This document shows positions 24,875 to 42,730 of a DNA stretch of 64,000 nucleotides, in pieces. Source of the stretch: a bacterium (lineage in GTDB: Bacteria; Bacteroidota; Ignavibacteria; UBA10030); assembly GCA_043803945.1 (NCBI GenBank), contig JAZDJN010000012.1, forward strand, positions 1-64,000. Reading direction: 5' to 3'. Both the position numbers and the translations under genes were made by a program. The first letter of the stretch is position 1; each line of letters begins with the position of its first letter. The notes beneath the pieces were generated by a model, which was not told the origin of the DNA, did no database searches, and saw nothing but the letters and a program-made list of their open reading frames with translations.

Positions 24875-25963
24875 TCACCGAAACAAATCAATTTGATTGC
24901 TGCCTGGAGGCCGAAAGTGTTCGGTAGAGAGTGACCGCGTTTCCTCGTTGAGATGATACTTGCGAATTGAAGTTTCAAATACCTGTCTGATCATAGAAGC
25001 ATATTCTCCTTTGCCCGAAAGCCGTTTGCCGAACTCGGAGCAATTGAGCTTTCCTTCCCGGATATCTTTCAACTGTGAGAGAATCTTTGACAACTTTGAA
25101 GGCACTTCCCTTTTCAGCCAGTCTTGAAATATCTCCCTTACAGCATACGGCAACCGCAGAATAGAATACGATGCAAACCGTGCACCGCAGTCGGATGCCT
25201 GCTTGAGAATGGATGATAATTCTGAATCAGTCAGGCCAGGAATCATCGGTGCAGCATTTACTCCCACAGGAATGCCAGCCAGAGCGAGATGCTGAATTGT
25301 ATCAAGTCGTTTCTGCGGTGTCGACGTTCTGGGCTCCAGCTTCCTTGCCAGTCCCTCACGAAGTGTCGTTATAGAAATACCGACACTCACACAATTGAAC
25401 GACGCAAGCTCTTTAAAAATATCGAGATCACGCAAAACGAGAGCATTCTTTGTCGTGACCACCACCGGGTTGCGTGCCTTAAGAAAGACTTCAAGGCACC
25501 GCCGCGTTAACCGGAGCTTTCGTTCAATCGGCTGATAGCAATCGGTATTACCCGAGAGAGCAACCACCTGCGGTTTCCATGAACGCCTCCTAAACTCCCG
25601 TTCCAATAATTCCGCGACATCATATTTCACCATGATCTTCGTCTCAAAATCGAGGCCGGAAGAAAACCCGAGATATTCATGCGACGGGCGTGCATAGCAG
25701 TAGATGCAGCCATGCTCGCAACCCCGGTAAGGATTCACACTGTATGAATAAAAGATATCCGGACTGTCGTTGCTCGCCAATACGGTTTTGGAACGATCAG
25801 CGTAGAAGGTCGTGATTGGATTCCGCTCCGGTTCAGGATCCTGAAAATATTCCGAAAGTTCGGAGGGAGTTTCCCCACGACTTGTCTTCTCGAAACGATT
25901 AGGGGGATTGATATGAGCCGCACGGCCCAGATAGGCTTTTGTCTCTGCTATTGTGCACTTCAT
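24875..25963 (-). CDS. PA0069-family radical SAM protein (SplB-like, DNA-repair associated)
   Basis: NPPNRFE, NPYRGCEHGCIYCYARPSHEYLG, SGNTDCYQP. Confidence 0.9.
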   Translation of the reverse strand: MKCTIAETKAYLGRAAHINPPNRFEKTSRGETPSELSEYFQDPEPERNPITTFYADRSKTVLASNDSPDIFYSYSVNPYRGCEHGCIYCYARPSHEYLGFSSGLDFETKIMVKYDVAELLEREFRRRSWKPQVVALSGNTDCYQPIERKLRLTRRCLEVFLKARNPVVVTTKNALVLRDLDIFKELASFNCVSVGISITTLREGLARKLEPRTSTPQKRLDTIQHLALAGIPVGVNAAPMIPGLTDSELSSILKQASDCGARFASYSILRLPYAVREIFQDWLKREVPSKLSKILSQLKDIREGKLNCSEFGKRLSGKGEYASMIRQVFETSIRKYHLNEETRSLSTEHFRPPGSNQIDLFR

Positions 25964-26026
25964 TTTGATTTACTATAATGGCTAGTGATCATATCAAATG
26001 ATGCAGAAGCTTAGACAAAGGAGCCC

Positions 26027-26133
26027 AACCGCAAAGGACACTAAGAACGCAAAGAACAAAAAGAGAACAGACTAACAGAAATTAATAAACACTCGACAGA
26101 TTTTCCTTTGTATCCTTTGCGGACTTTGCAGTT
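26027..26133. repeat. Hairpin of 9-bp-period inverted arms
   Basis: aaccgcaaaggacactaagaacgcaaag ... ctttgtatcctttgcggactttgcagtt. Confidence 0.7.
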
Positions 26134-26178
26134 CGACTTTATTCTTTCCTTTTTAGCCGGAACTCTATAGATAATATT

Positions 26179-26447
26179 ATGTACTTCGATCTTACTTCAT
26201 TCAAACAAGTAGACGATTATCGTTTATTCGTGAGCTTTGAAAACGGGAAATCGGGCATTATTAATCTCGGAGATTTCATCCCACTCGGCGGTATGTTTTC
26301 CCGTCTCATCGTCTGGAATATTGTCAACAGGTTTTCATCCACAAAGAACTCGGCGTGCTTACGTGGCCCGATGGCCTCGATATCGCACCTGAAACTCTTT
26401 ACAGTACCGCAACCGGTGAACCTCTACCCAATTGGGTAATAGAATAA
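26179..26447 (+). pseudogene. DUF2442-family gene with a frameshift near 26305
   Basis: DYRLFVSFENG..GGMFSRL in one frame; GVLTWPDGLDIAPETLY continues in another frame to TAA at 26447. Confidence 0.75.
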
Positions 26448-26520
26448 TCCCCTCACGGTTACTTTTTGATATTTCCGTTGTCATTTTTCACTTTTCATCT
26501 TAATTTTTTTATTCCCACTC

Positions 26521-28857
26521 TCAAACTGAGTGCTTACTTTTAAACATTGTCAACTGTGCCTTTGGCACCGACCGGTAGAGTGGAATTTCCTTCACGGCCT
26601 GGCGCCCCCGCCTTCTCGCTCTCACTGCAATGTTGAGATACTCTTTCAGTTTCTCCACATCATATCCAAACGGCAAGAGGAGCGTCTCCGCTGCCCGCAG
26701 GGCAAACTCTGTGTACTGTTCAATATCGTACCCATCCTCAAATGCATAGAGCGCAAGCGGCTTGGCTTTCTCCGGCCTCTTCTTCCCTGACTGGTCGAGG
26801 ATAATAAACTCGATCGACTCGCCCGGCGAGAGCGGCACACCCATCTCCTTCACCATCTTCGAGACCACCGCACTGATGCTGTTGTTCGCGTACTCGTCGG
26901 CATCCTTGGTGATATGGCGCTTCATCACAAGGTCCATGGGATTGGCCTTGCCGCTGCGCAGCAGTGCAACGTAGTTCCTGAGCACCTCAAGCAGATCGGG
27001 CACCATGGCCTCAATACCGCCGATCGACCGTGCAACGGCCATGCGGTCCAGCATCGCCGCCTGTAAATTTTTGATGAACATGGGCGTATCACGCCGCCGC
27101 GCCTCGATGCCGCGCATCTTAATCTCACCGAAACGGTACCAGCCGACATAATGGTTCGCCGTCGAGATCAACGGATCGGTCTTCGACGAGGGAAAAAGAA
27201 TCCAGTTGTACATTCCCTCCAGCGAAATATCGATACCGACCTTCACACCAATCTCTTTACAGAGCCGTTCATAGTCTGCTTCCGTCGCTCCCGGTTTCTT
27301 CAGCCACATGCAGTCGATGATGGCGTGCAGCATCCGGTAGCCATGCGACTCGGCAATTTCTTTCGCCTTGAGAATGGAATCCCGTGAGACTGCGTTCACC
27401 GATTCGTGCGCCTCGATTCTTCCGAAGCGTGCATTCTTGTAGCCAAGGTAGCCGAAGCAGCTGACGAGCATCCATTTCAGAGCGTTCTGCCGCCGGTCGT
27501 ATTTCCTGAAGAGCGCTTCGTCTTTTCCCTTGTATTCCCGCTTTTTCTGTTTGTAGTACGCCCTTTTCTTCACCACCATGTCAAGCGTTGCCGGAACAAT
27601 GCCAGTGCGTTTCTCGCACACCGTGTAGTTCAGCTCCGGCACCTTCGTGTTGCGGCAGCACCGGCAGTTGATCGTCTCGGGTGAAATGTTGTGCTTGACC
27701 ATGATTGTCGGATACATCGAAACGAAATCGAGTTCAGCGACATCTTCGTGGTAGCCGGAGGGTGGATTGAAGATGAGTCCGCCCCGGTCTGCCAGCATCA
27801 ACGTTGCCGCCGATTTGAATTCCTCGGGCTCGCGTTTCTTCGAGGGAATCAAAATCCCATTCTTGTGTGCCCAGGAAAGCTGCAGCGAGGACATCGATGT
27901 GCCGATGCTCGCCCGCGCTTCCCGCTGGCCGCACATCTGTGTGAGCCGCGCCATCTCATAAAGTCCGTCGAGATCCGCTTCACCCATGGTGAAGGAGTTC
28001 TTCTCGTCCACATGCCAGCGGCCGGCAATCTCGAATGCTCCATCTTTATGGACGATCCGGCCGTACTGGAAGAAGCTCGATTCCTTTGTAGTTTTATAAC
28101 CCGCAGCAGCATCACGGTTCAGCAGCATCTGCATGTTACACTGCGATGCGAGTGCCGTGATATGCGGCAAAAGAATCGAGTCGCCATACTCGGTAAGAAT
28201 AATATCCGGGTCACAGCGGTGGAGGTGCCAGTTGAGTGTGTCGAGAACGTCGCGTGCTGATTCTTGCTCGAGCGCATAGGTGCGCCCGTCGTAACTAACT
28301 TCGAGTTGTAGCTGCCGCTGGTACTTCGGCGGAACGAAAGTATTTCCGTTGCGCAGCCACATGATCGAAAGCGGCGGCAGGGCATATTCGGTGGCTTCAC
28401 GTGAATCGTTGATCTGCCAGTTGCAGAGCCGGCCCGTTCCGTCAATTGCATACTCGCCGAACGCCAGCGGAAACAATTCGGTATCGTAGAGAAACAACTG
28501 GGGCACGAGGATATCGGAGTTGAAGAAGGCGAAATGGGGAAAGAATTTCTCGTAGTACCACACCACCTCCCTGAAGCGCGTAGGATCGTGCACGTTCACC
28601 TGCAGCACATCCCACATGTCACCCGAGAATATCTCCCGCCGGGTTGTTGGTGCGATACTCACCGGCACCGGACATTGTGTGCCCAACTGCAGCGCCCGGC
28701 GGCTGTCGCTCTTGTTCAGGTGAAGGAAGAACGACGGGACAAACGGATACCGGCAGCAGTGCTTGTTGCCGTCCTGATCGATCAGCCATACGGTGACGCC
28801 ATCACTGACAGCATAGACATCAAATAACCAACCGGATATTGTACGATTCAGAGTCAT
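26521..28857 (-). CDS. polB: Family B DNA polymerase, PolB2-like
   Basis: DRGG, LDFVSMYPTIM, KWMLVSCFGYLG, HAIIDC replacing YGDTDS, RGIEARRRDTP; exonuclease motifs degenerate. Confidence 0.9.
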   Translation of the reverse strand: MTLNRTISGWLFDVYAVSDGVTVWLIDQDGNKHCCRYPFVPSFFLHLNKSDSRRALQLGTQCPVPVSIAPTTRREIFSGDMWDVLQVNVHDPTRFREVVWYYEKFFPHFAFFNSDILVPQLFLYDTELFPLAFGEYAIDGTGRLCNWQINDSREATEYALPPLSIMWLRNGNTFVPPKYQRQLQLEVSYDGRTYALEQESARDVLDTLNWHLHRCDPDIILTEYGDSILLPHITALASQCNMQMLLNRDAAAGYKTTKESSFFQYGRIVHKDGAFEIAGRWHVDEKNSFTMGEADLDGLYEMARLTQMCGQREARASIGTSMSSLQLSWAHKNGILIPSKKREPEEFKSAATLMLADRGGLIFNPPSGYHEDVAELDFVSMYPTIMVKHNISPETINCRCCRNTKVPELNYTVCEKRTGIVPATLDMVVKKRAYYKQKKREYKGKDEALFRKYDRRQNALKWMLVSCFGYLGYKNARFGRIEAHESVNAVSRDSILKAKEIAESHGYRMLHAIIDCMWLKKPGATEADYERLCKEIGVKVGIDISLEGMYNWILFPSSKTDPLISTANHYVGWYRFGEIKMRGIEARRRDTPMFIKNLQAAMLDRMAVARSIGGIEAMVPDLLEVLRNYVALLRSGKANPMDLVMKRHITKDADEYANNSISAVVSKMVKEMGVPLSPGESIEFIILDQSGKKRPEKAKPLALYAFEDGYDIEQYTEFALRAAETLLLPFGYDVEKLKEYLNIAVRARRRGRQAVKEIPLYRSVPKAQLTMFKSKHSV

Positions 28858-28905
28858 GGGTGTTTTAAAAAGTTACACCAACGAGTCACGGATACTACAC
28901 TCGGT

Positions 28906-29060
28906 AAAAATATCAAACTGCAAAAATGAAATTGGAAAATGACAGAGCAAAATGTAAAAAAGGCGTGTAACCGTATTAACTCCGCGAAGTGAAATACACC
29001 GAAGCGAAGATGGTATTTAATTTTTCCATTGTCATTTTGCCTTTTACATTTTGCATTTTT
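28906..29060. repeat. Inverted 7-bp-period arms (AAAATGx / xCATTTT)
   Basis: gcaaaaatgaaattggaaaatgacagagcaaaatgtaaaa ... ttttccattgtcattttgccttttacattttgcattttt. Confidence 0.7.
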
Positions 29061-29095
29061 ATTTCTGCCGCAGGCCTTCCATTCGTTCCATCCGT

Positions 29096-29497
29096 TCACT
29101 TGATCCAAAGAATTTTTATATCTTTCTCCAACGCCTTGAACTCACGATCACCGGTAACAAGCTCGGCCTTACGCTGCTTTGCCAGCGCAGCGGCAAAAGC
29201 ACCGGCGTACGACATTCTATGCGACGCCTTGTATCGTGCAGCAAGCAATGAGAGTTCTTCGTCGGCATCAATCAACTCCAAGGGATACTTGCTCAGGGTA
29301 GAGCGATAAAGCTCTCCCCGTGCCTCACCACCTTCTCGCAACGCGATGTAATACATCTCGCCCCAGTTGACAACGCAGACGGCAAGATCAGCCTGGTCGT
29401 TGAGCGCCTTGAGAAAAAGATCGGTCACCGTTTCTGCACCGGTTTCTCCCTCAGCGTAGGCGAGAAGAGCGTAACTATCGAGGACATAGTGCTTCAT
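29096..29497 (-). CDS. vapC: VapC-family PIN toxin
   Basis: YVLDSYALLAY, VNWGE, SYAGAF, LVTGDREF. Confidence 0.88.
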   Translation of the reverse strand: MKHYVLDSYALLAYAEGETGAETVTDLFLKALNDQADLAVCVVNWGEMYYIALREGGEARGELYRSTLSKYPLELIDADEELSLLAARYKASHRMSYAGAFAAALAKQRKAELVTGDREFKALEKDIKILWIK

Positions 29498-29730
29498 AAC
29501 TCACGCTCCTTTTTCTTTTCTTCCACCAAGGCGCGAAGCAATTTTCCTTTTGTTCCCAAAAATCCGGCGTTCGCCTTGATGAACTCGGGCGTAATGGGGA
29601 CAATACGGATGCTGTCGTTCTCTTCGTAGAACTGGACCCGCGTACCGTTTCGAATACCGTACTTCTGGCGCAACTTTGCCGGTATCACAACCTGACCCTT
29701 GACCGTCACATAGGATATTGACATAGGCAT
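29494..29730 (-). CDS. AbrB/MazE-family antitoxin
   Basis: VTVKGQVVIPAKLRQKYGI; overlaps the toxin start. Confidence 0.88.
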   Translation of the reverse strand: MPMSISYVTVKGQVVIPAKLRQKYGIRNGTRVQFYEENDSIRIVPITPEFIKANAGFLGTKGKLLRALVEEKKKEREL

Positions 29731-29764
29731 ATACTCCTTTCCCGTTTGTGCTTAATTACAACTA

Positions 29765-29793
29765 AGTATATACCATTTTTATAAGTAAGTCAA
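29765..29793 (-). promoter_or_regulatory. Promoter of the TA pair
   Basis: Minus strand TTGACT-17 nt-TATACT. Confidence 0.65.
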
Positions 29794-29862
29794 TTACTAA
29801 AAAGTAATACAAAAACTACATATACCTCAGACAACATTATGTATCCTCATAATGGAAAGAGC

Positions 29863-30126
29863 TTACAGACGCCCCCTCTCCATTCGCTCTATCCGTTCCT
29901 TAAGCTGCCTGAGGAGTTTCTGCTGCTCGACAAGAATTGACATCATAATGCTCTCGAACGGCACTGTGCGCATTGCATAGAAATTTTCGGCAAGGTGCAG
30001 TTTTGCCGCGCGAAAGACTTCATCGAACAGTTCCTGATCCTCCTTGCGCAGCCCGCGGCGAAACTTCGACCAGCTTGCCAGCTCGTTGTCGATGATGTTC
30101 GTGAAGGTCGGTACTGTGCGTCCCAC
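29863..30126 (-). CDS. Small helical PolB2 partner protein (PPB2/arCOG07300-like)
   Basis: GTG start after AGGAG; GRTVPTF..W..FRRGLRKEDQELFD..PFESIMMSILVEQ. Confidence 0.75.
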   Translation of the reverse strand: MGRTVPTFTNIIDNELASWSKFRRGLRKEDQELFDEVFRAAKLHLAENFYAMRTVPFESIMMSILVEQQKLLRQLKERIERMERGRL

Positions 30127-30198
30127 TGATTTCTCTCCTCTATAACAATGAACCATCGAGTGCGCCAAGGACACCAAGAACGCCAGCCTGATAGAAAT

Positions 30199-30942
30199 TC
30201 AAATCATTTTAACTTTTGCATTGTCATTTTGCATTTTCCTGTTTGATATTTCATCCTTTTCAGAAGGAATCGGTAACCCGGCAGCACTGTTACGCCTGAC
30301 GGGGCAGTGCATGCTCCCGCGATCTGCTTCGAGCAACAATCTTACCTGATCGTTTTCATCAACCTCCAGCCGGTAGACCCGATCCATGGTTTCTTTCATC
30401 GTTGTAAACAGCCGGTTGCGCTGCTCGGGCCAGACGGTGCGCTCCTGACACACAACAAGCAGCGAGGCACCGGAGCGTTTCATCTCGCTCAATGCCGCCA
30501 GCACACGCTTGAGAATGTTGCGGACTTCGTAGAGCGATGCCTGCTCGTCATACATGGTATCCAGCAGCCCGAAGATCATTCCCGTGCTGGATCCCTGTGA
30601 CGATAAAAATGCCGGCAGCCGGTTGACCACTGCCTGCTCAATCTGGTAACATGTAAAGCTGCGGGAGACGAAGATCTGGTTGAGCAGCGTATCGGGGTTT
30701 TGCCGGCGCTGCTGTGCAAACCGGACAATCGAGTGGACGTCGAACCGGTTGCAGCCGTCGACAACGGCAACGGTCGTTCCGCGGGTCAGGGCAGACGAGG
30801 CAATCCGCATGGAGAGATCGAAGACCTTCTTCTCGCCGTAGAGCAGATAGATTTTGCCTGGCGGCTCGGGAAAATGCTTCACCAGCGATCCGTAGGAGTG
30901 GTGCGTTAACGATGTATTCCGTTGTGGTGCAGCGATTTGCAT
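30199..30942 (-). CDS. Inactive RecA/RadA-like protein (iRadA/ImuA-like)
   Basis: IYLLYGEK (no GKT), VVDGCNRFD, IFVSRSFTCYQ; start position uncertain. Confidence 0.75.
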   Translation of the reverse strand: MQIAAPQRNTSLTHHSYGSLVKHFPEPPGKIYLLYGEKKVFDLSMRIASSALTRGTTVAVVDGCNRFDVHSIVRFAQQRRQNPDTLLNQIFVSRSFTCYQIEQAVVNRLPAFLSSQGSSTGMIFGLLDTMYDEQASLYEVRNILKRVLAALSEMKRSGASLLVVCQERTVWPEQRNRLFTTMKETMDRVYRLEVDENDQVRLLLEADRGSMHCPVRRNSAAGLPIPSEKDEISNRKMQNDNAKVKMI

Positions 30943-31037
30943 ATCGAGTCCCGGTAGATTTTCCCTTGCGCCCGAAGGCAACCGCAGTCATGTGATTGCC
31001 CTGGCCGACGAACAGGTAACTTCTTTTACAGAACCTC

Positions 31038-31126
31038 TTGACATCAACCTGAAAATCTTCTATCTTTGCCTCAGAAGAATACGACATAAATGTCGTGTTG
31101 TCAAGAGTAAAGTTGACAAATATGTC
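31038..31126. promoter_or_regulatory. Overlapping divergent promoters with two palindromic operators
   Basis: + TTGACA(31038)-17-TATCTT(31061); - TTGACA(31104)-17-TATTCT(31081); ACGACAT-AA-ATGTCGT at 31081-31096; GACA-AATA-TGTC at 31115-31126. Confidence 0.8.
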
Positions 31127-31140
31127 TTTTGGAAAGATGG

Positions 31141-31756
31141 CCGCCAAGGCGCCAAGGAAAGAGAGGAAAAAGCACTGAGGAGATGTTGTGAAAGAGCCAG
31201 ATGAAGCGATAGATGAATTAGCACATAGGGTGATTGGAGCAGCGATTGAAGTTCATAGAATTCTTGGACCTGGTTTTCTAGAATCAGTGTATGAAGAAGC
31301 GCTTTGTGCAGAATTAACTATTCGTTCTCTTTCTTTTAAGAGACAGGTACCGATAAGTATAGAATACAAAGGGCATTGCGTCGGGGAAGGAAGGATCGAT
31401 CTGATAATCCATGATAAAATTATTATTGAACTGAAAGCTGTTGAAGCATTTGCTCCTATCCACATGGCACAATTATTGTCGTATCTGCGAGCAACCGGTA
31501 TCCAGCTTGGGTTGTTGATAAATTTTCAAGCCGCCTTATTAAGAGAGGGTCTTAAGAGGATTGTCCTGTCAACGTAAAAACAAAAGCTTGTTTATTGGGG
31601 CACTTTGCGTGTTGCTCAAAATAGAAATCACTGGCAACAGGTTAAGAACCACAGAGACTTTTTAACACTACAAATTTTTTTCTTGGCGCCCTTGGCGGCA
31701 ATAGTTATTTGAAAAATCTTTTTCAACCTTTATATTCTCTTGGCGCCCTTGGCGGC
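31141..31756. repeat. Inverted arms flanking the GxxExxY gene
   Basis: ccgccaaggcgccaag at 31141 versus cttggcgcccttggcggc at 31682 and 31739. Confidence 0.75.
31188..31577 (+). CDS. GxxExxY protein (PD-(D/E)xK-like)
   Basis: LGPGFLESVYEEAL, RIDLII, IELKAV, QLLSYL, GLLINF. Confidence 0.92.
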   Translation: MKEPDEAIDELAHRVIGAAIEVHRILGPGFLESVYEEALCAELTIRSLSFKRQVPISIEYKGHCVGEGRIDLIIHDKIIIELKAVEAFAPIHMAQLLSYLRATGIQLGLLINFQAALLREGLKRIVLST

Positions 31757-31779
31757 CAATATTTCTTAAGGAGATTCCC

Positions 31780-32430
31780 ATGAAACAATCACTCGCACAA
31801 CGGATTCGTCAGGCTCGTCTCGCGAAGGAGCTCGATCAGGCAAAGCTCGCCGCAAAGGTAGATGTTGCCACGCGCACCGTCCAGCGCTGGGAAAAAGGCG
31901 AGCAGGTTCCCGACAGCAACTACCTGATGCGCATCGCTAAAACAACCGGCGTCACTCCGCATTGGCTGCTGACCGGCGAAGGTGAGATGTATCTGAAGTC
32001 ACAGCCGGAGACCAACGTGATCCCGCTTCCAACCGGACGTTACCGAAAAGTGGATTTGGTCACACTGCCGCTTCTCTCATCGGTACCCGGCGGCGCGCCA
32101 AGTCTGATTTTTCACCCGGACTATGTAGAGAAGTACATTACCGTTGATGACATCAATGATTCGAGCGCCTTTGCCCTTGAAGTAAAAGGCAACAGCATGG
32201 CACCGCGCATTGAAGATGGAGACATTATTGTGGTAAGTCCAAAGTTCGATGCGCGCAGCGGCGACATTTGTGTTGTGCGTGTGAACGATGAGGACACCGT
32301 GAAGCGCGTAAAGATCGAAGAGCATTACCTCCATCTTATTCCACTTAATCCAGAGTATGAACCGATGGTTGTGAAAAAGAGAGATGTCTCGTTTATCTGG
32401 AGAGTGGTGAAGGTGATTAAGAGTGTGTAG
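31780..32430 (+). CDS. XRE-HTH plus S24 autopeptidase repressor (LexA/CI-like)
   Basis: HTH RTVQRWEKG; VPGG putative cleavage site; GNSMAP Ser and TVKR Lys; AAGGAG RBS. Confidence 0.9.
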   Translation: MKQSLAQRIRQARLAKELDQAKLAAKVDVATRTVQRWEKGEQVPDSNYLMRIAKTTGVTPHWLLTGEGEMYLKSQPETNVIPLPTGRYRKVDLVTLPLLSSVPGGAPSLIFHPDYVEKYITVDDINDSSAFALEVKGNSMAPRIEDGDIIVVSPKFDARSGDICVVRVNDEDTVKRVKIEEHYLHLIPLNPEYEPMVVKKRDVSFIWRVVKVIKSV

Positions 32431-32737
32431 GAATATGAGAGTGTGAGAATGGGGGAATGTGGGAGTGTTGGGAATGGGAGACGAGAGGTAGAGTAACGAA
32501 TTTGCGATTGCCAATTGCAGAATGAGGAAACAAAGAGCAGAATGCAGACAGCAGAAAACGATAACAAATCAAAGAGCAACGGTTCAATGAATCATTAGAT
32601 CGTTGATCTAAGTTTATTCTTAAATCTCTTGGCGTTTTTGGCGCCTTGCCTGCCTGCGTGCCGAAGGCACTTCCGCCTACACAAAGCTTCGGCGGACAAG
32701 TCGGCAGGCAGGGCGGTTAAACATCTTTGGAGGAACA

Positions 32738-32998
32738 ATGGACAAATCATACAAAAACTGTCAGAGCTACGGCATGCCGATTAAGAAAGATCCCAAGAAC
32801 GGCGGAACGAATGCAGACGGTACAAAGAACCTGATGTATTGCAGCTACTGCTATGCCGATGGAAAATTCACTCAGCCGGATTGGACAGCACACGACATGC
32901 AGCTGTTCGTTAAAAAAACAATGAAGGAGATGGGCTTCCCGGGATTAATCGTGGGATGGTTTACAAAAGGGATACCGAGGTTGGAGAGATGGAAATAA
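32738..32998 (+). CDS. Zinc ribbon domain protein
   Basis: NCQSYGMP (second Cys replaced by Tyr), GTNADG, YCSYCY..G.F, LERWK. Confidence 0.8.
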   Translation: MDKSYKNCQSYGMPIKKDPKNGGTNADGTKNLMYCSYCYADGKFTQPDWTAHDMQLFVKKTMKEMGFPGLIVGWFTKGIPRLERWK

Positions 32999-32999
32999 G

Positions 33000-33185
33000 A
33001 GGAAAGAGGGGAAGATGGGGAGACTGGGAGAGAAGGTGAAGGTGAGAACGTAAGAGGGTGTGAATGATTGTCGATTGACGATCGGGAAAGTTGAGTTCAG
33101 ATAACAGGCAGCAGATTGCAGGTGGCAGACAAGGATACGCTTGCATGCTAACAGCCAAAGGCCAATTGCTGAGAGCTGCAGCAAA
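33000..33185. repeat. Mosaic of 8-mer then 7-mer periodic repeats (purine-rich)
   Basis: gggagagaaggtgaaggtgagaacgtaagagggtgtg...gcagattgcaggtggcagac. Confidence 0.6.
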
Positions 33186-33205
33186 CTACTATTCACCAGA
33201 ATGCT

Positions 33206-34972
33206 TCAATGAATTTTTTCCAACAATGCCATAAAATTACGCTTCTTCTTGTGAGTCGTACGCAGATCGGCCAGATAGTTATTCCACTCTTCTACCTTAC
33301 CAAGCCGTCCAAAAAGTACACCAATCTTTTTTACCAATGCTGACGCGTCACGATAGGCTTCATTATTCATCTGCCTTACGATTGGCTCAACTAACGACCG
33401 ATAGACTGTTAAAGCATCCTCGGGATGATCGTTCTCACGCTTCACAGCAAGCTCGCGCCACAGCGATTCATGGCATCCTCCCTCTTGAGCTTCTCTCCAC
33501 GCCACATCGATATCTTTTTCCCACAGATAGATTCGTACCAGTTCTGAACGATCGTCGGAATTCCAAATCCATTGATTACTCCTCGCCTTGCGTTTAGATT
33601 CTTTGATGCGGTCTCGAATGAGCGGAAGTGCTTTCTCTCTCCACATACCCCATGCTTCATGGCCACCTGCCTGCTCAGCATGAATCTTGAGAAGCTTATA
33701 TTTTTCTAACTGAGGTGAATCGGAAACCTCTGCCCAAATTAGCTGCATTGCATCGTCATGCCTCTTGAGCCAATGGTATTCTTTCGCCAGAAACTTACGC
33801 AGCCGGGAGTCTGTCCGTTTTGGAAAGACCCTTACACCCTCTTCGGCCCACTCCAATGCCTTATCCCTTTTGCCTGCCTCCTTATAAATTTCAGCAATCG
33901 TCAAATATGAGTAGGCATGCGAGAGATCTTTCTTCTTCACAGCGACCAGTTTCTCAACATCTTTTGTTTTCGAGGCAAGAGCCTCCATAATACTCGTAAT
34001 GCGGTATCGATTTCCAGCGAAGCTCTCTCTCTCCTGTCCCGGTTTTAATGCGGGAATTTTTACCCATTCCTTTTCTGCAAGCTCTGCATACACGCTTAAG
34101 CCTTTTTTGCCTAACACCCCTGCATATCGTGTTGATGCTCCATAAAACACTTCCCATTCGCTGTGAAGCTCCCAGTCAAACAGCTTTCGAGCTAATTGTT
34201 CTGGATCGGGTTTTACTTTTACACACGCCTTATAATGAAGTTCCTGAGTATCAGTGAGAATATCGCTCATAGCGCCGTCGGAATCATCCACCATATCCAT
34301 TTGAGCTTCCAGGCTCTTGAGGAAATATTCCGAGATCTCAATAACTGCCAGGGCATGGCCCTCGTGCAGAAGATCATCCAGAGACTCGATGATCTTTTCA
34401 ATTCCCTCTGAGTACTCATACATCGATTTGTAATCGACATAATCCCCCGAATCCACTGCCCGATCGATCTCTCTTTTGAACGTTGGAATTGATATTTTAT
34501 TTTCGCTCTTACTTGCTTTTAGATAAAGGTCGGATCTCAGTTCTTCATTTTTCTTCACACTCTGCATCAACATTGCTATAAGTGTTGTTTTATCCTGCGA
34601 CTCCAAATACGTCTCAACATCTTTTATTTTCAACGGGCTGCCGGATTGTGTCTCTTTAGGCTGAAGAGCACCTTCTTCATGTTTCTTGGACTCCAGGAAC
34701 GCTAAAGCAACAGCGACGCAATGCTTGCAAAAAACCTTATTGTCCTGATGAAATGGACAGGTACAGGAATATTCTAACTTATCCTTTTCTTGCCAAAGCT
34801 CTACTCGATAGACTCGTGAACCATGAACCTTTGCGTAGATTCTCTCATCGTCGATCTCGATATTCTTCACTCTTCCTTCTTCGAAATACTCCTTGCCACG
34901 TGAGTATGATGGCTCACCGACTGATTTTCGAAGCTGGTCGATGGTGAGAAGTTGGGAGATGTTTTTATGCAT
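33206..34972 (-). CDS. SWIM zinc finger protein with helical C-terminal repeats
   Basis: RGKEYF, AKVHGSRVY, CTCP..FCKHCVAV, HKKKRNF. Confidence 0.85.
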   Translation of the reverse strand: MHKNISQLLTIDQLRKSVGEPSYSRGKEYFEEGRVKNIEIDDERIYAKVHGSRVYRVELWQEKDKLEYSCTCPFHQDNKVFCKHCVAVALAFLESKKHEEGALQPKETQSGSPLKIKDVETYLESQDKTTLIAMLMQSVKKNEELRSDLYLKASKSENKISIPTFKREIDRAVDSGDYVDYKSMYEYSEGIEKIIESLDDLLHEGHALAVIEISEYFLKSLEAQMDMVDDSDGAMSDILTDTQELHYKACVKVKPDPEQLARKLFDWELHSEWEVFYGASTRYAGVLGKKGLSVYAELAEKEWVKIPALKPGQERESFAGNRYRITSIMEALASKTKDVEKLVAVKKKDLSHAYSYLTIAEIYKEAGKRDKALEWAEEGVRVFPKRTDSRLRKFLAKEYHWLKRHDDAMQLIWAEVSDSPQLEKYKLLKIHAEQAGGHEAWGMWREKALPLIRDRIKESKRKARSNQWIWNSDDRSELVRIYLWEKDIDVAWREAQEGGCHESLWRELAVKRENDHPEDALTVYRSLVEPIVRQMNNEAYRDASALVKKIGVLFGRLGKVEEWNNYLADLRTTHKKKRNFMALLEKIH

Positions 34973-35155
34973 GATGAATGTTCTGGTTTCGCGTAAGGTT
35001 ATTGAGATTTCATTGATTACGTATTGAATGTAAAAATTCTCATCGAAATTTAAGAGAATGTAAACGAACCTCTCATAAGATATAAAGTCGTCTTTTGGGA
35101 AAATTGATTTTCAATTTCTCAAACCACACATCGAGAGCGAACAAGTGCCGATCCT

Positions 35156-35263
35156 ATGAAGAAAAATCCGGTTGTTCACGAGTATTTTTCCATTGACATC
35201 GATCTCGTATGGCAAATTACCCCAAAAAGCCTGCCCGACCTCAAGATCAACTTACAACATTAA
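35156..35263 (+). pseudogene. HepT/DUF86 toxin C-terminal remnant
   Basis: MKKNPVVHEYFSIDIDLVWQI..SLPDLK; Rx4H Arg and N-terminus lost. Confidence 0.6.
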
Positions 35264-35459
35264 AGGATCTTGCAGGGTAGCCCCCGATTCATAAGCTGCG
35301 ATTTCTTTTGGGAATCATCTCTCAGCGTCATCTGCGAAATTACCATATATTATTGTGTACAAATATATACTTTTGTATATGAAGTACAAACACATGGCCA
35401 TCGTGCCAACGGCACAGAATTTCCCAAATTTCCATGAGTTTGATCTTTTCGAATGCCAT

Positions 35460-35673
35460 CTGTCAATCCTCCATAGTGATGAAATAGCGATTAAGCCAAA
35501 GGCTTATGAGCCTTCGGCTCAGAGGAGACAAAGTATGGCTGTTCCTAAAACAGAATCAACTCCGGGTGGGGTAACTTTGACAGGGGGTCAGTGGGGAATG
35601 ATCTGACCCTGGAAACGGGGAATCATCTGGCCCTGAAGGCCTCTAACATGGGGAATTGTGGTGACCCTTGACA
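35460..35673 (+). mobile_element. IS21-family end remnant
   Basis: Three ggggaat..tg.ccct boxes ending in TTGACA at 35673; upstream ILHSDEIAIKPKAY resembles an IstB C-terminus. Confidence 0.6.
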
Positions 35674-35972
35674 GATATAAAAATAATCATAAAAAAAGCC
35701 TTTTTTGTATCTCGATGTGCGCGTTTGGTTTTGTTGTTCTTCTTACTAGTTCTTCCAGACACTCCCCGCCATAATGATCAGTAGGTTTACTCACCATCTT
35801 GTTGGGCGGGCAAGCCGCGACAGAATCAAACTTATCTCCTGAATTATACATCCCTGCAAAGTATCTCCTTTACACTCCTCTACCAACAGCTGATAAATCT
35901 CTTCCTACATATGCTTTGTTTTCACAACCGGAATTACTGAATTCTATATTATCAATACTAATTATGTATTCT

Positions 35973-36695
35973 TCATCCCGCTTTCTTCATTCTCGGCATT
36001 TCATCCCAGGTTTTACCTTCAAGCAATCTGCCCGCTTTTTTCTTGTTCGTACCTCCCCATTGCTTGAAGAAGAATGGAACACGATTATTAAAACATTGGT
36101 CGCGGATATCTAGCACCCAGGCTTCATCCATTGGCCGCGCTCCAGGACCTGATTCTCCACCTACGATCACCCAATCGATCTTCTTGAGATTCAGTTTGCG
36201 AAGTGGTCCAAGCAGCGGTTCAAGTGAGAGGAACTTTACAAGAGCACCTGTCGCCCTCAAATCATCAATGCGGTGTATGTAATCCTGATTCTCGACACTG
36301 ACACCCATCCAGATGTTTGGTGTCCACTTCAGCAGCGGGCTGAGTTCTCGAAGCCGTTCTGAGCGTTTTGTCAAAACTTGAAAACGATGCCAGTGAGTCT
36401 GTCCCATCACGTCAAATACTTTTTGGATGAATGCAAGCGGAACATCTTTATGGAATAAGTCACTCATCGAATTTACAAAGATCGTTTGCGGCTTCTTCCA
36501 CTGGAGCGGAAGATCCACCGCATGGTCGTGCAACGTTAGTTTGAATCCATTAGTATAGTTCGCCTGTCCCATTCGCTGTAAACGGTATGCCATACGTTCT
36601 GCATAGCAATGCTTGCAGCCCGGACTGATTTTATTACAGCCAGTAACCGGATTCCATGTAGATTCAGTCCATTCGATCTGTGATTTTTGCGCCAT
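35973..36695 (-). CDS. DUF5131 / phage Gp37-Gp68 family protein (radical SAM-like)
   Basis: [53 protein letters not shown]. Confidence 0.93.
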
Positions 36696-36696
36696 G

Positions 36697-37572
36697 TTAT
36701 TCTAATATTTCTTGTGCAATTTTAATTGCGGTTTTTGCTCCTTTTACGTTCGCTGCTGCGAAACAGAGCAAATAAAGAGGAATATTTTTCCTGTTTAGAA
36801 GTAGAAGGGGATTAGAAGCGACTCCAGGAAATATACTTGAAAGTCGATTCACAAAATACTCAGCAATCGAATCAAAATTGCAGTTCTTTATTGTCAAATT
36901 TTCCTCACCAAAAAGATTCTCTTCTCTCGTTTTCTTATAGAATGCTCGGTACCACCCCGATGAACCGAAGACAACATTCAACCGCTTGCGAACTGCTGGA
37001 TTTATTTGCGCATCTCGTCGAAGCAACCGATTAACTGCCACACCCAGAGGGAAGAGAATCCAGAGATCGATGGCTTTAGTTTCTGCTATCGCTTCTATTG
37101 TATTCCACGCGACTTGCATACCGTATGGATCAAGAAAGAGCACTGCCCTGTTCTTTTTCCAATCATAATTCCGGCATCTGTCTTGAAGCCATTCGTTTGC
37201 GTCTTCATTGACAATTGAGACATCTTTGGAAAGTTCGGGATATGAATTGCGTAATGCCTCAAGTTCGACAATCTTGTTTGCATTGCGTTCAATGAAAATA
37301 TACTTGGAAAACCGCGGCTTCACTTCCAATGCAATTCTGGCGGAGCCATCAACGAATGTCCTCGTTTCAGGTTCCAGTAGTTCCGGTATGGCTAATTGCA
37401 ATTCATTTTCTTCTGGAGAAATTGTTCGATAACCCGTTCCCGCAAACGCATCGATAAATGCAAACCTAAACGGCTGCTTATTCATGATGGTTGCATAGGC
37501 AACAAGATACTTCTTCAGCCTCAACAACTTATCATTTGTCCAATCGCCGCCAAAGCTATGATGAGATACCAA
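36697..37572 (-). CDS. tcmP: Three-Cys-motif partner protein (methyltransferase-like)
   Basis: [31 protein letters not shown]; adjacent to DUF5131. Confidence 0.88.
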
Positions 37573-37682
37573 GGTGCTTTCTCCCGTATGATTCTACACC
37601 TTCTCCGTCCCCTGATTGAGCAGGTACTCCTGAAACCGATCAAGTTCTATCTTGATCTTGGTCATGGTCAGGAAATTGATAA

Positions 37683-38108
37683 TTACATCGAATGAATCAA
37701 CCGCGTGAATCCTTCCTGCTCGAAGTGATGATCGCTTGACAATACTTCTGTTATCGCATTCTCATTCATCACTTGCATAGAAACACAATCAATGAAACTA
37801 GACTCTTTATCCAAACGAGATTTGTAGAATGAGACACTTCTGACAAATAAATCTCGCGTCTGTGGGAATACTCTCACATTAGGATTCTGGAGAATCTTAT
37901 TTACCGCTTCAGCAGCTTTTAGTCTCCATCCTTCTCCGAACCTCGAAAATAGATTAAGAACTTCTCCAAGGACGAATTCTGTAGTTATATACAACACTGG
38001 ACCATGCTTTTTAAGTTCTTCGTCGGCTCGCCTTGCTGCAAGATGGTGCTGATCTTGAGTATCAAGTATCGCAACCCAAAAACAAGTGTCTGCAAAAACC
38101 TGCTTCAT
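37683..38108 (-). CDS. PIN-domain (VapC-like) nuclease
   Basis: VFADTCFW, VLGE, SFIDCVS, SSDHHFEQEGF. Confidence 0.88.
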   Translation of the reverse strand: MKQVFADTCFWVAILDTQDQHHLAARRADEELKKHGPVLYITTEFVLGEVLNLFSRFGEGWRLKAAEAVNKILQNPNVRVFPQTRDLFVRSVSFYKSRLDKESSFIDCVSMQVMNENAITEVLSSDHHFEQEGFTRLIHSM

Positions 38109-38113
38109 GAATG

Positions 38114-39010
38114 CTAACGGTTGTAGAGGTACTTATCGTGACTCGAAGAGAAATCTTTGGGTAATTTCTTTATTTCTTCCTCAGGGATATCTGCCACAAG
38201 AGACAGAAGCTCATCAACAATAGACGGCGCTTCTATACTGAGTTGATTTTCATCGCTTGTTTCCTCCAGTGAATCAACTCGCACAATCTTTTTCAATGTA
38301 CCATCTGGATTGAATTCGCCCCACCCTCTCACGCGAAGTTTCTTAGATCGATGTTCTTTAAGAGCAGTTGTCACCGTCTCTTCAGCCTCTACCGGAAACG
38401 CTACAGGGAAGTTTATACCCTCTCCTTTATAGAGTTGAAAACTATTATGGACTACATCCGCTGCTCCAACCATACCCACGATATCAACTATGTCTTCAAA
38501 GCTTTTTTCTGCAAACTTTAAGATACGAGCCCGAACCTCGGGAGTGTATTCAACAGCTTTCGATTTTGAAGGGTGAATATGGAGCTTTTCATTCTCTCGC
38601 AGTGTCGAGCCGAGCTTACCAAAAAGTGGGATAATGTTCTTCGGTAAATTTTCCGGTAGCGGCGAATCTTGTTGGAGGCATTCTATGGTTCTCCCCGTCA
38701 ACTCAACAGCTTCCACGACCGGTTCCTCTTCAAATACTTCTAATTGTACACCATCTTCAAAATAGGCTTCTAATGGAAGTACTGCGCTTCCATCACCGAT
38801 ATGCGTAAAACGAAGGATTGTTCTCTGCTCGAAGTTGCGAGGTATTCTTTCTCGCTCTGGATGTTTTCTCTTATACAATTCAACAGCAGTCTTGGTAACG
38901 AGGCTTTGATATTCGATTAGCTCTGATAGCACATCAAGTGTGAGGGCGTGACCTTCGAATCTCTGACCTTCCAGCCTTAGCTCAACTATTTCTATCCATT
39001 TGCCAGCCAT
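38114..39010 (-). CDS. Hypothetical protein with an antitoxin-like C-terminus
   Basis: Ends IPEEEIKKLPKDFSSSHDKYLY, as in PIN-linked antitoxins; 5 bp upstream of the PIN gene. Confidence 0.6.
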   Translation of the reverse strand: MAGKWIEIVELRLEGQRFEGHALTLDVLSELIEYQSLVTKTAVELYKRKHPERERIPRNFEQRTILRFTHIGDGSAVLPLEAYFEDGVQLEVFEEEPVVEAVELTGRTIECLQQDSPLPENLPKNIIPLFGKLGSTLRENEKLHIHPSKSKAVEYTPEVRARILKFAEKSFEDIVDIVGMVGAADVVHNSFQLYKGEGINFPVAFPVEAEETVTTALKEHRSKKLRVRGWGEFNPDGTLKKIVRVDSLEETSDENQLSIEAPSIVDELLSLVADIPEEEIKKLPKDFSSSHDKYLYNR

Positions 39011-39289
39011 CGAAATAAACCCTGAAGTATCATTTAGGAAGGATATTCATGTTCAAATGAATCAGTGCAACTTGACGCTGTTAATATTAGGTAATCGAGA
39101 GTGTAAAAGCAACCGCTAACCCTGGACCGGATTGATTCATAATAAGAAGGAGAATGGGAGGCAGAATCGGCCCGACTTAGAATAAAAACATCTTATATTT
39201 ACAGCCATTTTAACGTCTTTCTTCTTTCATCTTACTGATTCAGGTCGGGAGGAGACCTCCCTCCCAGCATTGATAATTAGAAAGTCTTC

Positions 39290-39458
39290 CATTTCCCGTT
39301 TCCGCCTCCTCTCTTAATGTCGTCTGCTCTCTACGATCTGTAGTCTGACGTCTGCAGTCTGTCTTCTGCCATCTGCAATCTGCCATTACCAATCCCCCCA
39401 TCACTCCTTCTCCCACTCTCATACTCTTATACACTCTTACCCTCTTACGCTCATACCC
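39290..39458. repeat. Mosaic of 7-mer then 8-mer periodic repeats (pyrimidine-rich)
   Basis: tctgccatctgcaatctgcc...actctcatactcttatacactcttaccctcttacg. Confidence 0.6.
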
Positions 39459-40088
39459 TCAAATCTTTTTCCACTCTTGCCTAAACACAAACACTCCGCT
39501 CTGCCATATCTCTTCCGGCGATGTGTTTGATGGATGTGTTGGAGTTGTGAGAATTTCCTTGCCAATGTTTTGATAGCACAGACGTACGAATGTTGCACAT
39601 TGAATGGCATGCTTCATATCGAAAATATTTTTCTTCGATAAGGCCTTTGTGAGTATCGCCCAGAGCGTGCCGAAGAGTTCACCGACCGGATACCGGTAGT
39701 GGTTCTCATCATACGCCAACTCGAGAGCTTTCCTTAACATTACCTCCTGCTCCTGCTGTGAAAGAGGTAATCCAAGCACACCGGCATAATCGAGATCGTC
39801 TCGGCACCACTTCACGATGCGGCTCTCCATCAAACCGTTCTTCACCTCCCAGTCCTTGACGCTCACGTGAAGGTCGCTCTCGAAGATATAGATGCCGCCG
39901 TCACCGCGACCGTCATCGCGGCACGGTCCCATTATAAAGACATGGTTAAACTTCGACGGTTTCTTATCCGGTGTTATACCGCTCTGCGCTTCACGGATAA
40001 GCTTATAGACCGGGTCTGAGGATCCAATAAGACAGATACGTCCCGGCGCATAATGCTGCCGGAAGAAGTTGAGGACTTGTGTGTTCAT
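39459..40088 (-). CDS. Permuted papain-like (NlpC/P60, YaeF/YiiX-like) protein
   Basis: PGRICL, FNHVFI (His before Cys), FES, QCATFV, SPEEI. Confidence 0.7.
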   Translation of the reverse strand: MNTQVLNFFRQHYAPGRICLIGSSDPVYKLIREAQSGITPDKKPSKFNHVFIMGPCRDDGRGDGGIYIFESDLHVSVKDWEVKNGLMESRIVKWCRDDLDYAGVLGLPLSQQEQEVMLRKALELAYDENHYRYPVGELFGTLWAILTKALSKKNIFDMKHAIQCATFVRLCYQNIGKEILTTPTHPSNTSPEEIWQSGVFVFRQEWKKI

Positions 40089-40127
40089 AGAGTTGCTCCT
40101 TCTGTTATAGAAATCAATCAGTCTCGA

Positions 40128-40678
40128 TGCACCCTTCGACTTCGTCCCGACTCATCAAGATGAATCGGGACTGCGCTCAGGGTGACAGGATTAAGTTTTC
40201 AAAGATAATAGTCAGTCTGAGCGCAGTGAGTGCTTTCTACGAACGAAGTCGATGACCGCTGTGAGGAAATAATGCATTTTGCATCCTTCGACTTCTCTCG
40301 TCCCGACAGGTCGAGCCGAGCTGCCTGCCCGCCAATTTGTGAGCAAGAATGGCAGGCGAGCGCTCAGGGTGACAGGATTAAGTTTTCAAAGATAATAGTC
40401 AGTCTGAGCGCAGTGAGTGCTTTTTACGAACGAAGTCGAAGACTGCGGATAGGAAATAATTCATTTTGCATCCTTCGACTCTATCCTGATTCATCGAAAT
40501 GAACCGGAATTGCGCTCAGGATGACTGGAGTTTTTAAAGTAAGAACCATAGTCAGTCTGAGCGCAGTGAGTGCTTTCTACGAACGAAGTCGAAGACTGTG
40601 GATAGGAAATAATTCATTTTGCATCCTTCGACTCCATCCCGATTCATCGAAATGAACCGGGATTGCGCTCAGGATGAC
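40128..40678. repeat. Tandem array of about 3.5 REP-like palindromic units (150-190 bp)
   Basis: Repeated gca.ccttcgac...gcgctcagg.tgac and gtcagtctgagcgcagtgagtgcttt.tacgaacgaagtcga. Confidence 0.9.
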
Positions 40679-40986
40679 TCTCTCTTTTTTCGTCTTTCAA
40701 CCATTTCCTTTGATTGGGCAAGTTCATGGATCAGATCAAAGTCTCCTTTTATCAGTGCTTCCTTCTTTTTCCGCGACCAGCCTTTGATTTGCCTCTCCGC
40801 GCATATTGCCTGGTAGATATCCGGAAATTCGTCCGACCAAACCAGCTTGACAGGTCGACGCCTCGAAGTGTAGCCTTCATAGATTCCTAATTCATGCGCA
40901 CTTATTCGCGTCTCCGGCTGAGTCGTACATCCGGTGTAATATGAGCCATCAGAGCATTCGAGTATGTACACCCAGGCTTTCTTCAC
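40669..40986 (-). CDS. GIY-YIG nuclease (YhbQ-like)
   Basis: WVYILECSDGSYYTG, RISAH, YT, ERQIKGWSRKKK. Confidence 0.9.
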   Translation of the reverse strand: MKKAWVYILECSDGSYYTGCTTQPETRISAHELGIYEGYTSRRRPVKLVWSDEFPDIYQAICAERQIKGWSRKKKEALIKGDFDLIHELAQSKEMVERRKKRESS

Positions 40987-41122
40987 ATCTATTGTTCCTG
41001 ACCATCACCATCACAAGCGATGACTTTTTTGAAATCATTGTCTATGTTTCAACGGAGGTTATTATGATATTCATTTTTTGCTTCAACGTGTGAAATCAGT
41101 GTAATCAGTGAAATCAGCGTAA

Positions 41123-42685: not shown

Positions 42686-42730
42686 AGATTATCCTTTCAA
42701 GGCTGTAACTCCTTAGTTGATAAAAGATTG

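Follow-up and report, generated by a model that had tools for sequence, protein, structure and literature searches.

What does a bacterial family-B DNA polymerase of the PolB2 group do, and what controls it? The question is raised by a locus at positions 24875 to 32430 of the 64,000-nucleotide stretch of DNA analysed here (the window: positions 1 to 64,000 of contig JAZDJN010000012.1, assembly GCA_043803945.1, from a member of the Ignavibacteria). There, genes for PolB2, for a protein with a RadA/Rad51 fold lacking a P-loop (iRadA) and for a small three-helix protein (PPB2) are accompanied by a gene for a repressor that combines an XRE-type helix-turn-helix (HTH) with an S24 peptidase domain (XRE-S24). 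The answer that we regard as highly probable is that the locus is a bacterial PolB2 mutasome operon, held off by a CI-type S24 repressor acting as the LexA of this lineage.

Such a system had been thought little described in bacteria by an earlier reading of the same DNA (the sequence-only reading), but it has been in print as an in-silico finding since 2014 and 2025. Bacterial PolB2, arCOG07300, an inactivated radA and lexA were placed in one predicted operon by Makarova et al. (2014, PMC4104785), and Timinskas, Timinskas and Venclovas (2025, PMC11791011) described the order of the bacterial operon and its interspersed genes and gave it the name PolB2 mutasome. The latter authors also reported an enrichment of lexA, SRAP and DUF72 genes near the operon, an MGRT arm as the hallmark of PPB2, a D(K/R) loop and clamp motifs, and a Rad51-oligomerisation-like motif modelled on iRadA. 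Our finding confirms this published work rather than changing it; the useful additions suggested by the sequences are the operator and promoter architecture, the exchange of LexA and XRE-S24 within one order, and an apparent one-locus regulon.

According to the list of open reading frames (ORFs), the minus strand is transcribed in the order iRadA, PPB2, vapB-vapC, PolB2 and a PA0069-family radical SAM gene, and all ORFs of the locus are intact. This order, and the genes themselves as recovered from the list and from family scans, are those given by the sequence-only reading. The three core genes lie at 30199..30942 (iRadA, 247 amino acids), 29863..30126 (PPB2, 87 amino acids, from a GTG start) and 26521..28857 (PolB2, 778 amino acids, with an apparently degenerate exonuclease domain), all on the minus strand. 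The repressor gene (31780..32430, plus strand; HTH_3 and Peptidase_S24) does lie on the opposite strand, as had been noted, but it is not directly divergent from the operon, because a GxxExxY gene (31188..31577, plus strand) stands between them.

PolB2 matches PF00136 (E 2e-33) and has as its best NCBIfam model the type-B polymerase NF004416 (E 1e-118; 397.5 bits, under its cut-off of 516), the Pol II models of the same collection reaching 51.7 bits at most (NF004421, cut-off 570). Its best PDB matches are archaeal PolBs (E 1e-43), with no Pol II chain among the best 60 of 61 matches. The enzyme is thus not of the Pol II type, a grouping that would have counted against the sequence-only reading, this class placement resting on family scores and PDB ranks that stand in for a tree with named references. 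Motif C reads HAIIDC (residues 511-516), as first noticed, with IID in place of DxD and the second Asp kept. An alignment of 55 PolB2 sequences shows no variation at D377 of motif A, at H511 or D515, or at D357, G359 and G360, D357-R358 corresponding to the D(K/R) loop. No exonuclease-domain Pfam family is listed for the protein at E ≤ 0.01, and phmmer against solved PolBs aligned it over residues 283-739 only; going by the general motifs, the acidic residues of ExoI, ExoII and ExoIII appear to be replaced. The C-terminus carries QLTMF (residues 768-772), and an (L/M)F dipeptide, read by eye, occurs within the last 30 residues of 15 of 22 orthologues.

By sequence, a weak match of iRadA to RadB (E 0.005) is the only family match of either partner protein. 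The iRadA ORF is open from 30981, with the ATG at 30942 as the likely start, and the predicted model (pLDDT, the predicted local distance difference test, 85.4) has the RadA/Rad51 core fold without the N-terminal domain, its top PDB matches being RadA, DMC1 and RAD51 cores (E 6.5e-10, template modelling score 0.6-0.69). The P-loop or Walker A pattern GxxxxGK[ST] was not found in an alignment of 23 iRadA sequences, in which VVDG is conserved. PPB2 is listed as a TTG ORF at 29863-30177; translation in fact starts from the GTG at 30126, which follows a GGAG-type ribosome-binding site and gives the N-terminus MGRTVPTF. Such a site precedes each of 24 PPB2 starts, and the proteins begin with MGRT in 23 cases and MGRN in one, MGR being invariant (24/24). 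The PPB2 model (pLDDT 81.4) consists of helices at residues 8-24, 28-48 and 57-86; Foldseek gave no match at E ≤ 0.001 (the SigE N-terminal domain came at E 2.9), and with VIA-align the best Z, 5.6, fell among generic helical chains, RpoE at Z 4.8 being tied with many of these.

We also modelled the complex of PolB2 with the iRadA core, which reached ipSAE values of 0.82, 0.82 and 0.81 in three runs, the best of three controls giving 0.00. Contact agreement among runs was at least 94% and the pLDDT of the partner at least 83. The ipSAE mark attained by this model is reached by 116 of 157 solved complexes and by 2 of 215 mismatched pairs, counts that hold here roughly only, the model having used purpose-made alignments. 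The confident contacts of iRadA fall on PolB2 residues 340-357 and are centred on F347-K-S-A350, the FKSA (347-350) that directly precedes the D357-R358 loop, where the published models place their Rad51-oligomerisation-like motif (PMC11791011). FxxA is the Rad51 oligomerisation motif. The predicted interface is model support, not proof of binding.

A further feature of the polymerase is a CxCC-x12-C pattern at residues 398-414 (window ~27616-27666), between motifs A and B, whose four cysteines are nearly invariant in the 55 sequences. It may be a metal site, and it is not mentioned in the available portions of the published PolB2 descriptions.

The core genes reproduce the published bacterial PolB2 operon in most respects (PMC11791011). 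They share with it the single order of iRadA, PPB2 and PolB2 reported for bacteria, with genes interspersed; IID for DxD and an apparently decayed exonuclease domain; the MGRT arm on PPB2; a RadA-fold partner without an ATPase site, contacted in the model by the PolB2 loop before D(K/R); a candidate motif of the beta-clamp type; an S24 repressor; and SRAP and DUF72 genes, here 17 kb off. Gene order, IID motif, MGRT arm, RadA fold and modelled interface together support the identification of the three genes as a PolB2 mutasome. The differences are that the repressor here has a CI/XRE-type HTH, and that the candidate clamp motif is on PolB2, whereas in the published set iRadA was the more frequent carrier; the main text of PMC11791011 mentions neither a vapBC pair within the operon nor a PA0069 radical SAM gene following it, though its supplements may list them.

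PolB2 was found in 30 of 40 relatives (18/24 of the same family and 12/16 of the same order) and, in a sample of 150 genomes from the whole phylum, in 14, all 14 belonging to the same class and 13 to the same order; named close homologues, at 70-73% identity, come from metagenome-assembled genomes (MAGs) carrying the label Ignavibacteria or Bacteroidota. The co-conservation of the core genes that the sequence-only reading had expected is borne out: of 20 loci from relatives, 17 have all three next to one another in unchanged order. The exceptions are a PolB2 gene alone on a short contig (L008), a set split by 5.6 kb (L015) and a locus in which iRadA was not found with the query used (L027). 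Neighbours in relatives include genes for SRAP, DUF72, DinB and an SplB-like radical SAM protein, that is, DNA-damage genes, and a repressor orthologue lies within 5 kb in 5 of the 20 loci.

Turning to the regulator, its N-terminal domain matches the HTH_3, Phage_CI_repr, P22 C2 and 434 repressor families. Where canonical LexA has the LexA_DNA_bind winged helix, the family scan of this protein returned no PF01726 match, and TIGR00498 scores 68.9 bits against a cut-off of 110.95, on the S24 part only; the repressor is thus CI-like, as had been proposed, and not a canonical LexA. Its alignment with E. coli LexA spans the part that holds the cleavage site and the catalytic residues. All 31 orthologues have Ser139 and Lys175, and the equivalent of the Ala84-Gly85 cleavage site of E. 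coli LexA is G104-G105, with GG in 24 of the 31 proteins and AG in the other 7. No other S24 or LexA-like match was obtained in the genome, which is 100% complete by marker genes. Full-length orthologues, with 51-83% identity, are present in 30/40 relatives, mostly unlinked to PolB2; a single order accounts for all full-length orthologues at or above 59% identity, with identities of 37% at most elsewhere in the phylum.

Upstream of iRadA, two promoters overlap face to face. P(+) (31038..31066, plus strand; TTGACA-17-TATCTT) points to the GxxExxY and repressor genes, and P(-) (31076..31104, minus strand; TTGACA-17-TATTCT) to the operon; each agrees with the consensus at 10/12 positions, the top score in an 8-kb promoter scan, at which five sites tie. 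Operator O1 (31081..31096, ACGACATAAATGTCGT, with the core GACA-N4-TGTC at 31083-31094) fills the spacer between the -35 and -10 elements of P(-) and is located a few bases downstream of the point where transcription from P(+) would be expected to start. Operator O2 (31113..31128, core GACAAATATGTC at 31115-31126) is 32 bp from O1, upstream of the -35 element of P(-). With a position weight matrix (PWM) for the operator, O1 has the highest score in the whole 5.54-Mb genome (23.5) and O2 the fourth highest (19.0).

The same architecture recurs in relatives. Upstream of repressor orthologues the palindrome CGACA-wwww-TGTCG is found, usually twice and ~31-33 bp apart, just downstream of a TTGACA-17-TATnnT promoter, giving the same succession of promoter, O1 and O2. 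At least one exact GACA-N4-TGTC site occurs in 28 of 31 repressor upstream regions, and at least two in 17, against 61 of 1619 tiles of the same loci taken as control; the three regions without a site are those of L035, of L041 and of the window itself, where the operators are ~650 bp upstream of the repressor gene, with the GxxExxY gene intervening. Among iRadA upstream regions 11 of 25 have a site, 10 of them in the layout O2, ~8 nucleotides, TTGACA, O1 in the spacer and TATnnT, and some of these 10 loci have their repressor gene on another contig. A 15-locus alignment shows no variation in TTGACA or in either operator half-site. Sites with PWM scores of 17 or more occur in 18 of 34 PolB2 loci labelled Ignavibacteria or Bacteroidota, a count to be read with the origin of the matrix in mind, which was built from the same clade and in part from genomes that contribute to the 34; none was found in 46 PolB2 loci of other phyla (502,894 bases), nor in the 8 Bacteroidota-labelled loci that carry canonical LexA.

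Some relatives depart from this arrangement. In L035 (G013) and L041 (G008) iRadA comes right after the repressor gene, in the same orientation, and palindromes of the type CCTTC-N-GAAGG stand upstream of the repressor gene instead of GACA-N4-TGTC; in G008, PolB2 is alone on another contig (L008) with its own operator pair at 7724-7767. Another pair, at L055 (G016:C3:208350-208392; PWM 24.4 and 24.3, 31 bp apart), adjoins an IS1-like transposase gene and small genes of unknown function, and may mark an extra member of the regulon. One candidate operator was rejected: the GC-rich CTTGGCGCCCTTGGCGGC, with two copies ahead of the repressor gene and an inverted one close to the operon, is a repeat dispersed through the genome, untied to GxxExxY genes and absent near recA or dinB.

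That XRE-S24 stands where LexA would be expected is also suggested by a wider comparison. Among 80 public PolB2 loci, 29 have an S24 gene nearby, of which 28 were scanned: 21 encode canonical LexA (LexA_DNA_bind and S24), mostly directly upstream on the operon strand, and 7 an XRE-type protein, namely four orthologues of the present XRE-S24 and three short XRE-S24 proteins from MAGs labelled Nitrospiraceae. Close relatives of the present operon, inside the same group, are also found with canonical LexA next to them, in L080 and L081 (PolB2 70-71% identical) and in L018, whose genome (G028) lacks an XRE-S24 orthologue. As judged from these sequences, canonical LexA and XRE-S24 replace each other beside PolB2 within the order, each with its own operator state. 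The three Nitrospiraceae-labelled proteins (L114-L116; HTH_3 and S24, 181-190 amino acids) head PolB2 operons of their own and look like an independent case of an XRE-type repressor in the place of LexA.

CI-type S24 repressors have been described as non-canonical LexA proteins in Bacteroidetes (Sanchez-Osuna et al., 2021, PMC8565304). The present repressor resembles them in its CI-type HTH and S24 domain, its Ser-Lys dyad and (A/G)-G site, its fixed-spacer palindromic operator, usually in two copies, and a host lineage without classical LexA; the putative sites also lie in its own promoter and before error-prone polymerase and SplB-type genes, as they do there. It differs in the operator, GACA-N4-TGTC here as opposed to GGA-N5-TCC or CTAA-N5-TTAG there, and in the lack of a site before recA or dinB in this genome, according to a PWM scan that leaves room for weak sites. 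The strings 'polB', 'Ignavibacteri', 'GACA' and 'TGTC' do not occur in the main text of PMC8565304, and a GACA-N4-TGTC operator was not found in print in the main texts searched, nor did a search for work on LexA and the SOS response in Ignavibacteria bring up a related paper.

We propose that repressor dimers on O1 and O2 would block both promoters; because P(+) and P(-) overlap and O1 and O2 are so placed, one bound pair of dimers could shut the two together. Upon DNA damage, RecA filaments would induce the repressor to cut itself at G104-G105 with its Ser139/Lys175 dyad, and the operon would be transcribed. PolB2 would then contact iRadA with its FxxA-type loop (residues 340-357), the MGRT arm would join it to a PPB2 trimer, the C-terminal QLTMF would take it to the beta clamp, and it would extend primer ends past lesions without proofreading, like archaeal Dpo2. 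In this genome the circuit may be modified by the vapBC pair, with a promoter-like site of its own, and by the GxxExxY insertion.

Several observations weigh against this account, in addition to the shared origin of matrix and loci mentioned above. The cleavage-site equivalent is Gly-Gly here rather than Ala-Gly. The operators are 140-180 bp upstream of the iRadA ATG, the repressor gene is ~700 bp from the operator-controlled promoter, and a further promoter-like site lies before the repressor gene at 31709-31736. In relatives, 14 of the 25 iRadA upstream regions have no site within 350 nucleotides; for most of these a site is found 0.6-3 kb further up, heading longer operons begun by DUF72 or dinB, and in four regions there is a divergent SRAP gene and no site nearby. 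Within the locus, no operator was found upstream of the radical SAM gene (best PWM 0.6), and the promoter-like site before vapB could drive PolB2 apart from the repressor.

This last point leads to the vapBC pair (29096..29730, minus strand), an AbrB/MazE-type antitoxin with a PIN toxin, as in type II VapBC systems. VapB (29494-29730; PF04014, E 5e-9) and VapC (29096-29497; PF01850, E 7e-16) overlap by 4 nucleotides. The pair is flanked by a 20-nucleotide direct repeat (29078-29097 and 29879-29898, 90% identical, spacing 801) that duplicates the 3' end of PPB2, and neither it nor the GxxExxY gene is present in any of 20 relatives' PolB2 loci; both are, on this comparison, insertions specific to this genome. 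The cassette might have split the operon, so that PolB2, and perhaps the radical SAM gene, would be expressed mainly from the vapB promoter under antitoxin autoregulation, uncoupled from damage. The uniqueness of the insertion is in keeping with this possibility, as are the promoter-like sequence 35 nucleotides upstream of vapB (29765..29793, minus strand; TTGACT-17-TATACT, 10/12, a consensus match only) and the lack of a minus-strand terminator-like site between vapC and PolB2. However, the interval from PPB2 to vapB likewise showed no terminator-like site, so that read-through from P(-) could occur; every ORF has stayed intact; and interspersed bacterial PolB2 gene sets are still treated as operons in PMC11791011. 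We therefore consider an uncoupled polymerase gene possible, if rather unlikely.

The spacer between vapC and PolB2 contains a 47-nucleotide inverted repeat (28912-28958 and 29016-29062), a third copy of which (30208-30254) encodes the odd C-terminal tail of iRadA. No further copies were found in the genome, and the repeat is not a multi-copy element; the predicted RNA folding of the spacer is unremarkable (z -1.34).

How far the repressor reaches beyond the mutasome is the next question. One possibility is that it governs the SOS response globally, with a regulon extending to recA, uvr genes, dinB and others by way of degenerate sites missed by the scan, in which case the locus would not be a nearly closed circuit. 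Orthologues do persist in four relatives where PolB2 was not found (G017, G020, G021 and G022), although in G021 the absence may be an effect of assembly, because the retrieved stretch ends in an iRadA fragment, ~425 bp short of the contig end. In relatives the same operators also front DUF72, dinB and radical SAM genes, and in G020 the repressor gene is divergent from a radical SAM orthologue with an operator between the two; non-canonical LexA proteins of Bacteroidetes, moreover, control classical SOS genes (PMC8565304).

The genome itself gives a different picture. Exact GACA-W4-TGTC occurs seven times in it, within the range given by eight scrambled controls (2-23), and O1/O2 form the only clustered intergenic operator pair (G000). 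The other high-scoring sites whose context was checked were rejected as lying inside long ORFs (C42, C103, C16 and C13, and C71 within an ORF of 961 amino acids), with the exception of C62:5092, a single operator-like site in a gene-poor stretch. Best upstream PWM scores in the genome are low for recA (-8.1), dinB (-9.6), SRAP (-4.0) and DUF72 (4.2), and no exact site was found within 1 kb of recA in the five relatives examined. A global regulon thus seems unlikely to us.

The description of the repressor as the operon's own holds only in part. It is the single S24 protein of the genome and has putative operators in the operon promoter, but its orthologues persist mostly unlinked to PolB2, some in genomes where PolB2 was not found, and the same operators front other genes elsewhere. 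From these sequences it looks like the LexA substitute of the order, with a small regulon centred on lesion tolerance, which in this genome appears to be reduced to one locus. The fuller scenario is one that we advance tentatively, with somewhat less than even confidence: a CI-type S24 repressor replaced canonical LexA together with a new GACA-N4-TGTC operator, the regulon shrank to repressor and mutasome with recA, dinB, SRAP and DUF72 left outside, and the toxin-antitoxin promoter may feed the polymerase gene.

As regards function, the proposal that PolB2 extends primers past lesions has its sole biochemical basis, by analogy, in Dpo2 of Sulfolobus islandicus, an active, exonuclease-free extender of mismatches and lesions (Feng et al., 2022, PMC8764526). 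The two are alike, as Dpo2 is described, in the IID-type motif C, the lack of proofreading (apparent, for the present enzyme) and the operon partners iRadA and PPB2. They differ in that Dpo2 is archaeal, works with PCNA rather than the beta clamp and is regulated by an Orc1/Cdc6-type factor, according to PMC11791011. E. coli Pol V (UmuD'2C-RecA) and the ImuA-ImuB-DnaE2 cassette are also comparable in outline, each combining a repressor-controlled, damage-inducible and error-prone polymerase with a small subunit and a partner of the RecA family. Here, however, the catalytic subunit is unrelated, being of family B and not of family Y or C, an inactive RadA paralogue takes the place of RecA as partner, and the small subunit is not an S24 protein. 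Neither Pol V nor ImuA-ImuB-DnaE2 was found in the genome, where the sequence-only reading had advised looking for them: there are one Pol III alpha, one Y-family polymerase and one RecA, and with a single Pol III alpha and a single S24 protein there is therefore no UmuD, no DnaE2-based cassette and no classical LexA.

It is conceivable that PolB2, iRadA and PPB2 serve replication restart, regulation of replication or phage defence instead of translesion synthesis, or that PolB2 is catalytically dead. PolB2 has another residue for the first Asp of DxD, predictions for a long time made the group inactive and a role connected with replication has been discussed for it (PMC4104785), and a variable island with PADLOC candidate defence genes starts 0.8 kb from the repressor. 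Yet Dpo2 with the same IID motif is an active polymerase (PMC8764526), D377 and D515 are invariant in the 55 sequences, and the genes next to PolB2 in relatives are DNA-damage genes. Nor is the 'HEase' match of PolB2 in PADLOC, its only one, a defence assignment, because it covers only the polymerase part of a homing-endonuclease model of 1671 positions. Taken together, this makes a role outside translesion synthesis, or a dead enzyme, very improbable.

Finally, that XRE-S24 is the CI repressor of a prophage or mobile element placed beside the operon by chance, as its matches to phage CI, P22 C2 and 434 repressor families and the mobile-looking GxxExxY and vapBC insertions around it might suggest, is scarcely credible in view of its full-length orthologues in 30 of the 40 relatives, its standing as the only S24 protein of the genome, the operators in PolB2 promoters on other contigs and the lack of phage genes adjoining it.

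Bacterial PolB2 mutasomes have so far never been bench-tested. If the operon is the main or only target of a two-operator switch, genomes of this kind, without Pol V and ImuABC, would offer a clean setting in which to ask whether damage-induced mutagenesis of bacteria is due to PolB2, and in what way LexA is replaced by a CI-type repressor. The presence of canonical LexA and XRE-S24 beside orthologous operons in one order is a natural case of regulator replacement. Should the regulon indeed consist of the mutasome only, the locus would represent a minimal SOS circuit, further rewired by a toxin-antitoxin cassette.

The remaining genes and repeats around the operon may be described more briefly. 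The product of the GxxExxY gene belongs to the PD-(D/E)XK_3 family (PF13366, E 3e-43; TIGR04256), and the gene sits in the leader of the repressor transcript, between P(+) and the repressor ATG. It is flanked by inverted copies of a dispersed repeat, at 31139-31155 (minus), 31681-31699 (plus) and 31738-31756 (plus). This repeat, a tandem heptamer of the form CTTGGCG-N1-3-CTTGGCGGC, lies in AT-rich intergenic DNA and is also found at ~30155-30190. Genome-wide there are 36 matches with at most two errors and 50 matches to the core, many of them paired in inverted orientation at distances of 75-340 bp, and many placed shortly before a start codon. The genome has 11 tblastn matches to the GxxExxY protein, and the repeat was linked to such genes in only 1 of the 11.

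The PA0069-family radical SAM gene (24875..25963, minus strand), of the SplB-like DNA-repair type (NF033668, 468.4 bits against a cut-off of 360), is the last gene on the operon strand. Its membership of the operon, as first read, agrees with its strand and is weakened by the 557-bp gap that separates it from PolB2 and contains an ORF on the opposite strand; the gene directly follows PolB2 in 5 of the 20 relatives' loci. The ORF in the gap (26179-26439, plus strand) is DUF2442-like (E 2e-4, below the Pfam cut-off) and may be a relic, perhaps of another small inserted cassette.

On the other side of the locus, a variable island of ~16.7 kb (window 32500-49200) extends from the repressor gene to a convergent pair of SRAP (49247-49966, plus strand) and DUF72 (49980-50897, minus strand) genes, which lie 17 kb away and carry no operator. 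This pair adjoins a CNNM/CorC transporter gene here, as in L009, and in relatives flanks or heads the PolB2 operon. The island, which may be a defence island, encodes a SWIM/DUF6880 protein (PADLOC PDC-S62, 33206-34972) and a DUF5131 protein (PDC-M41B, 35973-36695), together with PIN, GIY-YIG, transglutaminase-like and papain-like proteins and an EEP nuclease. Farther away, at window positions 11000-14000, a region with a GC content of 0.30-0.37, as compared with ~0.47, contains a DUF5128/DUF4934 beta-propeller gene and ORFs of unknown function, and may be foreign DNA.

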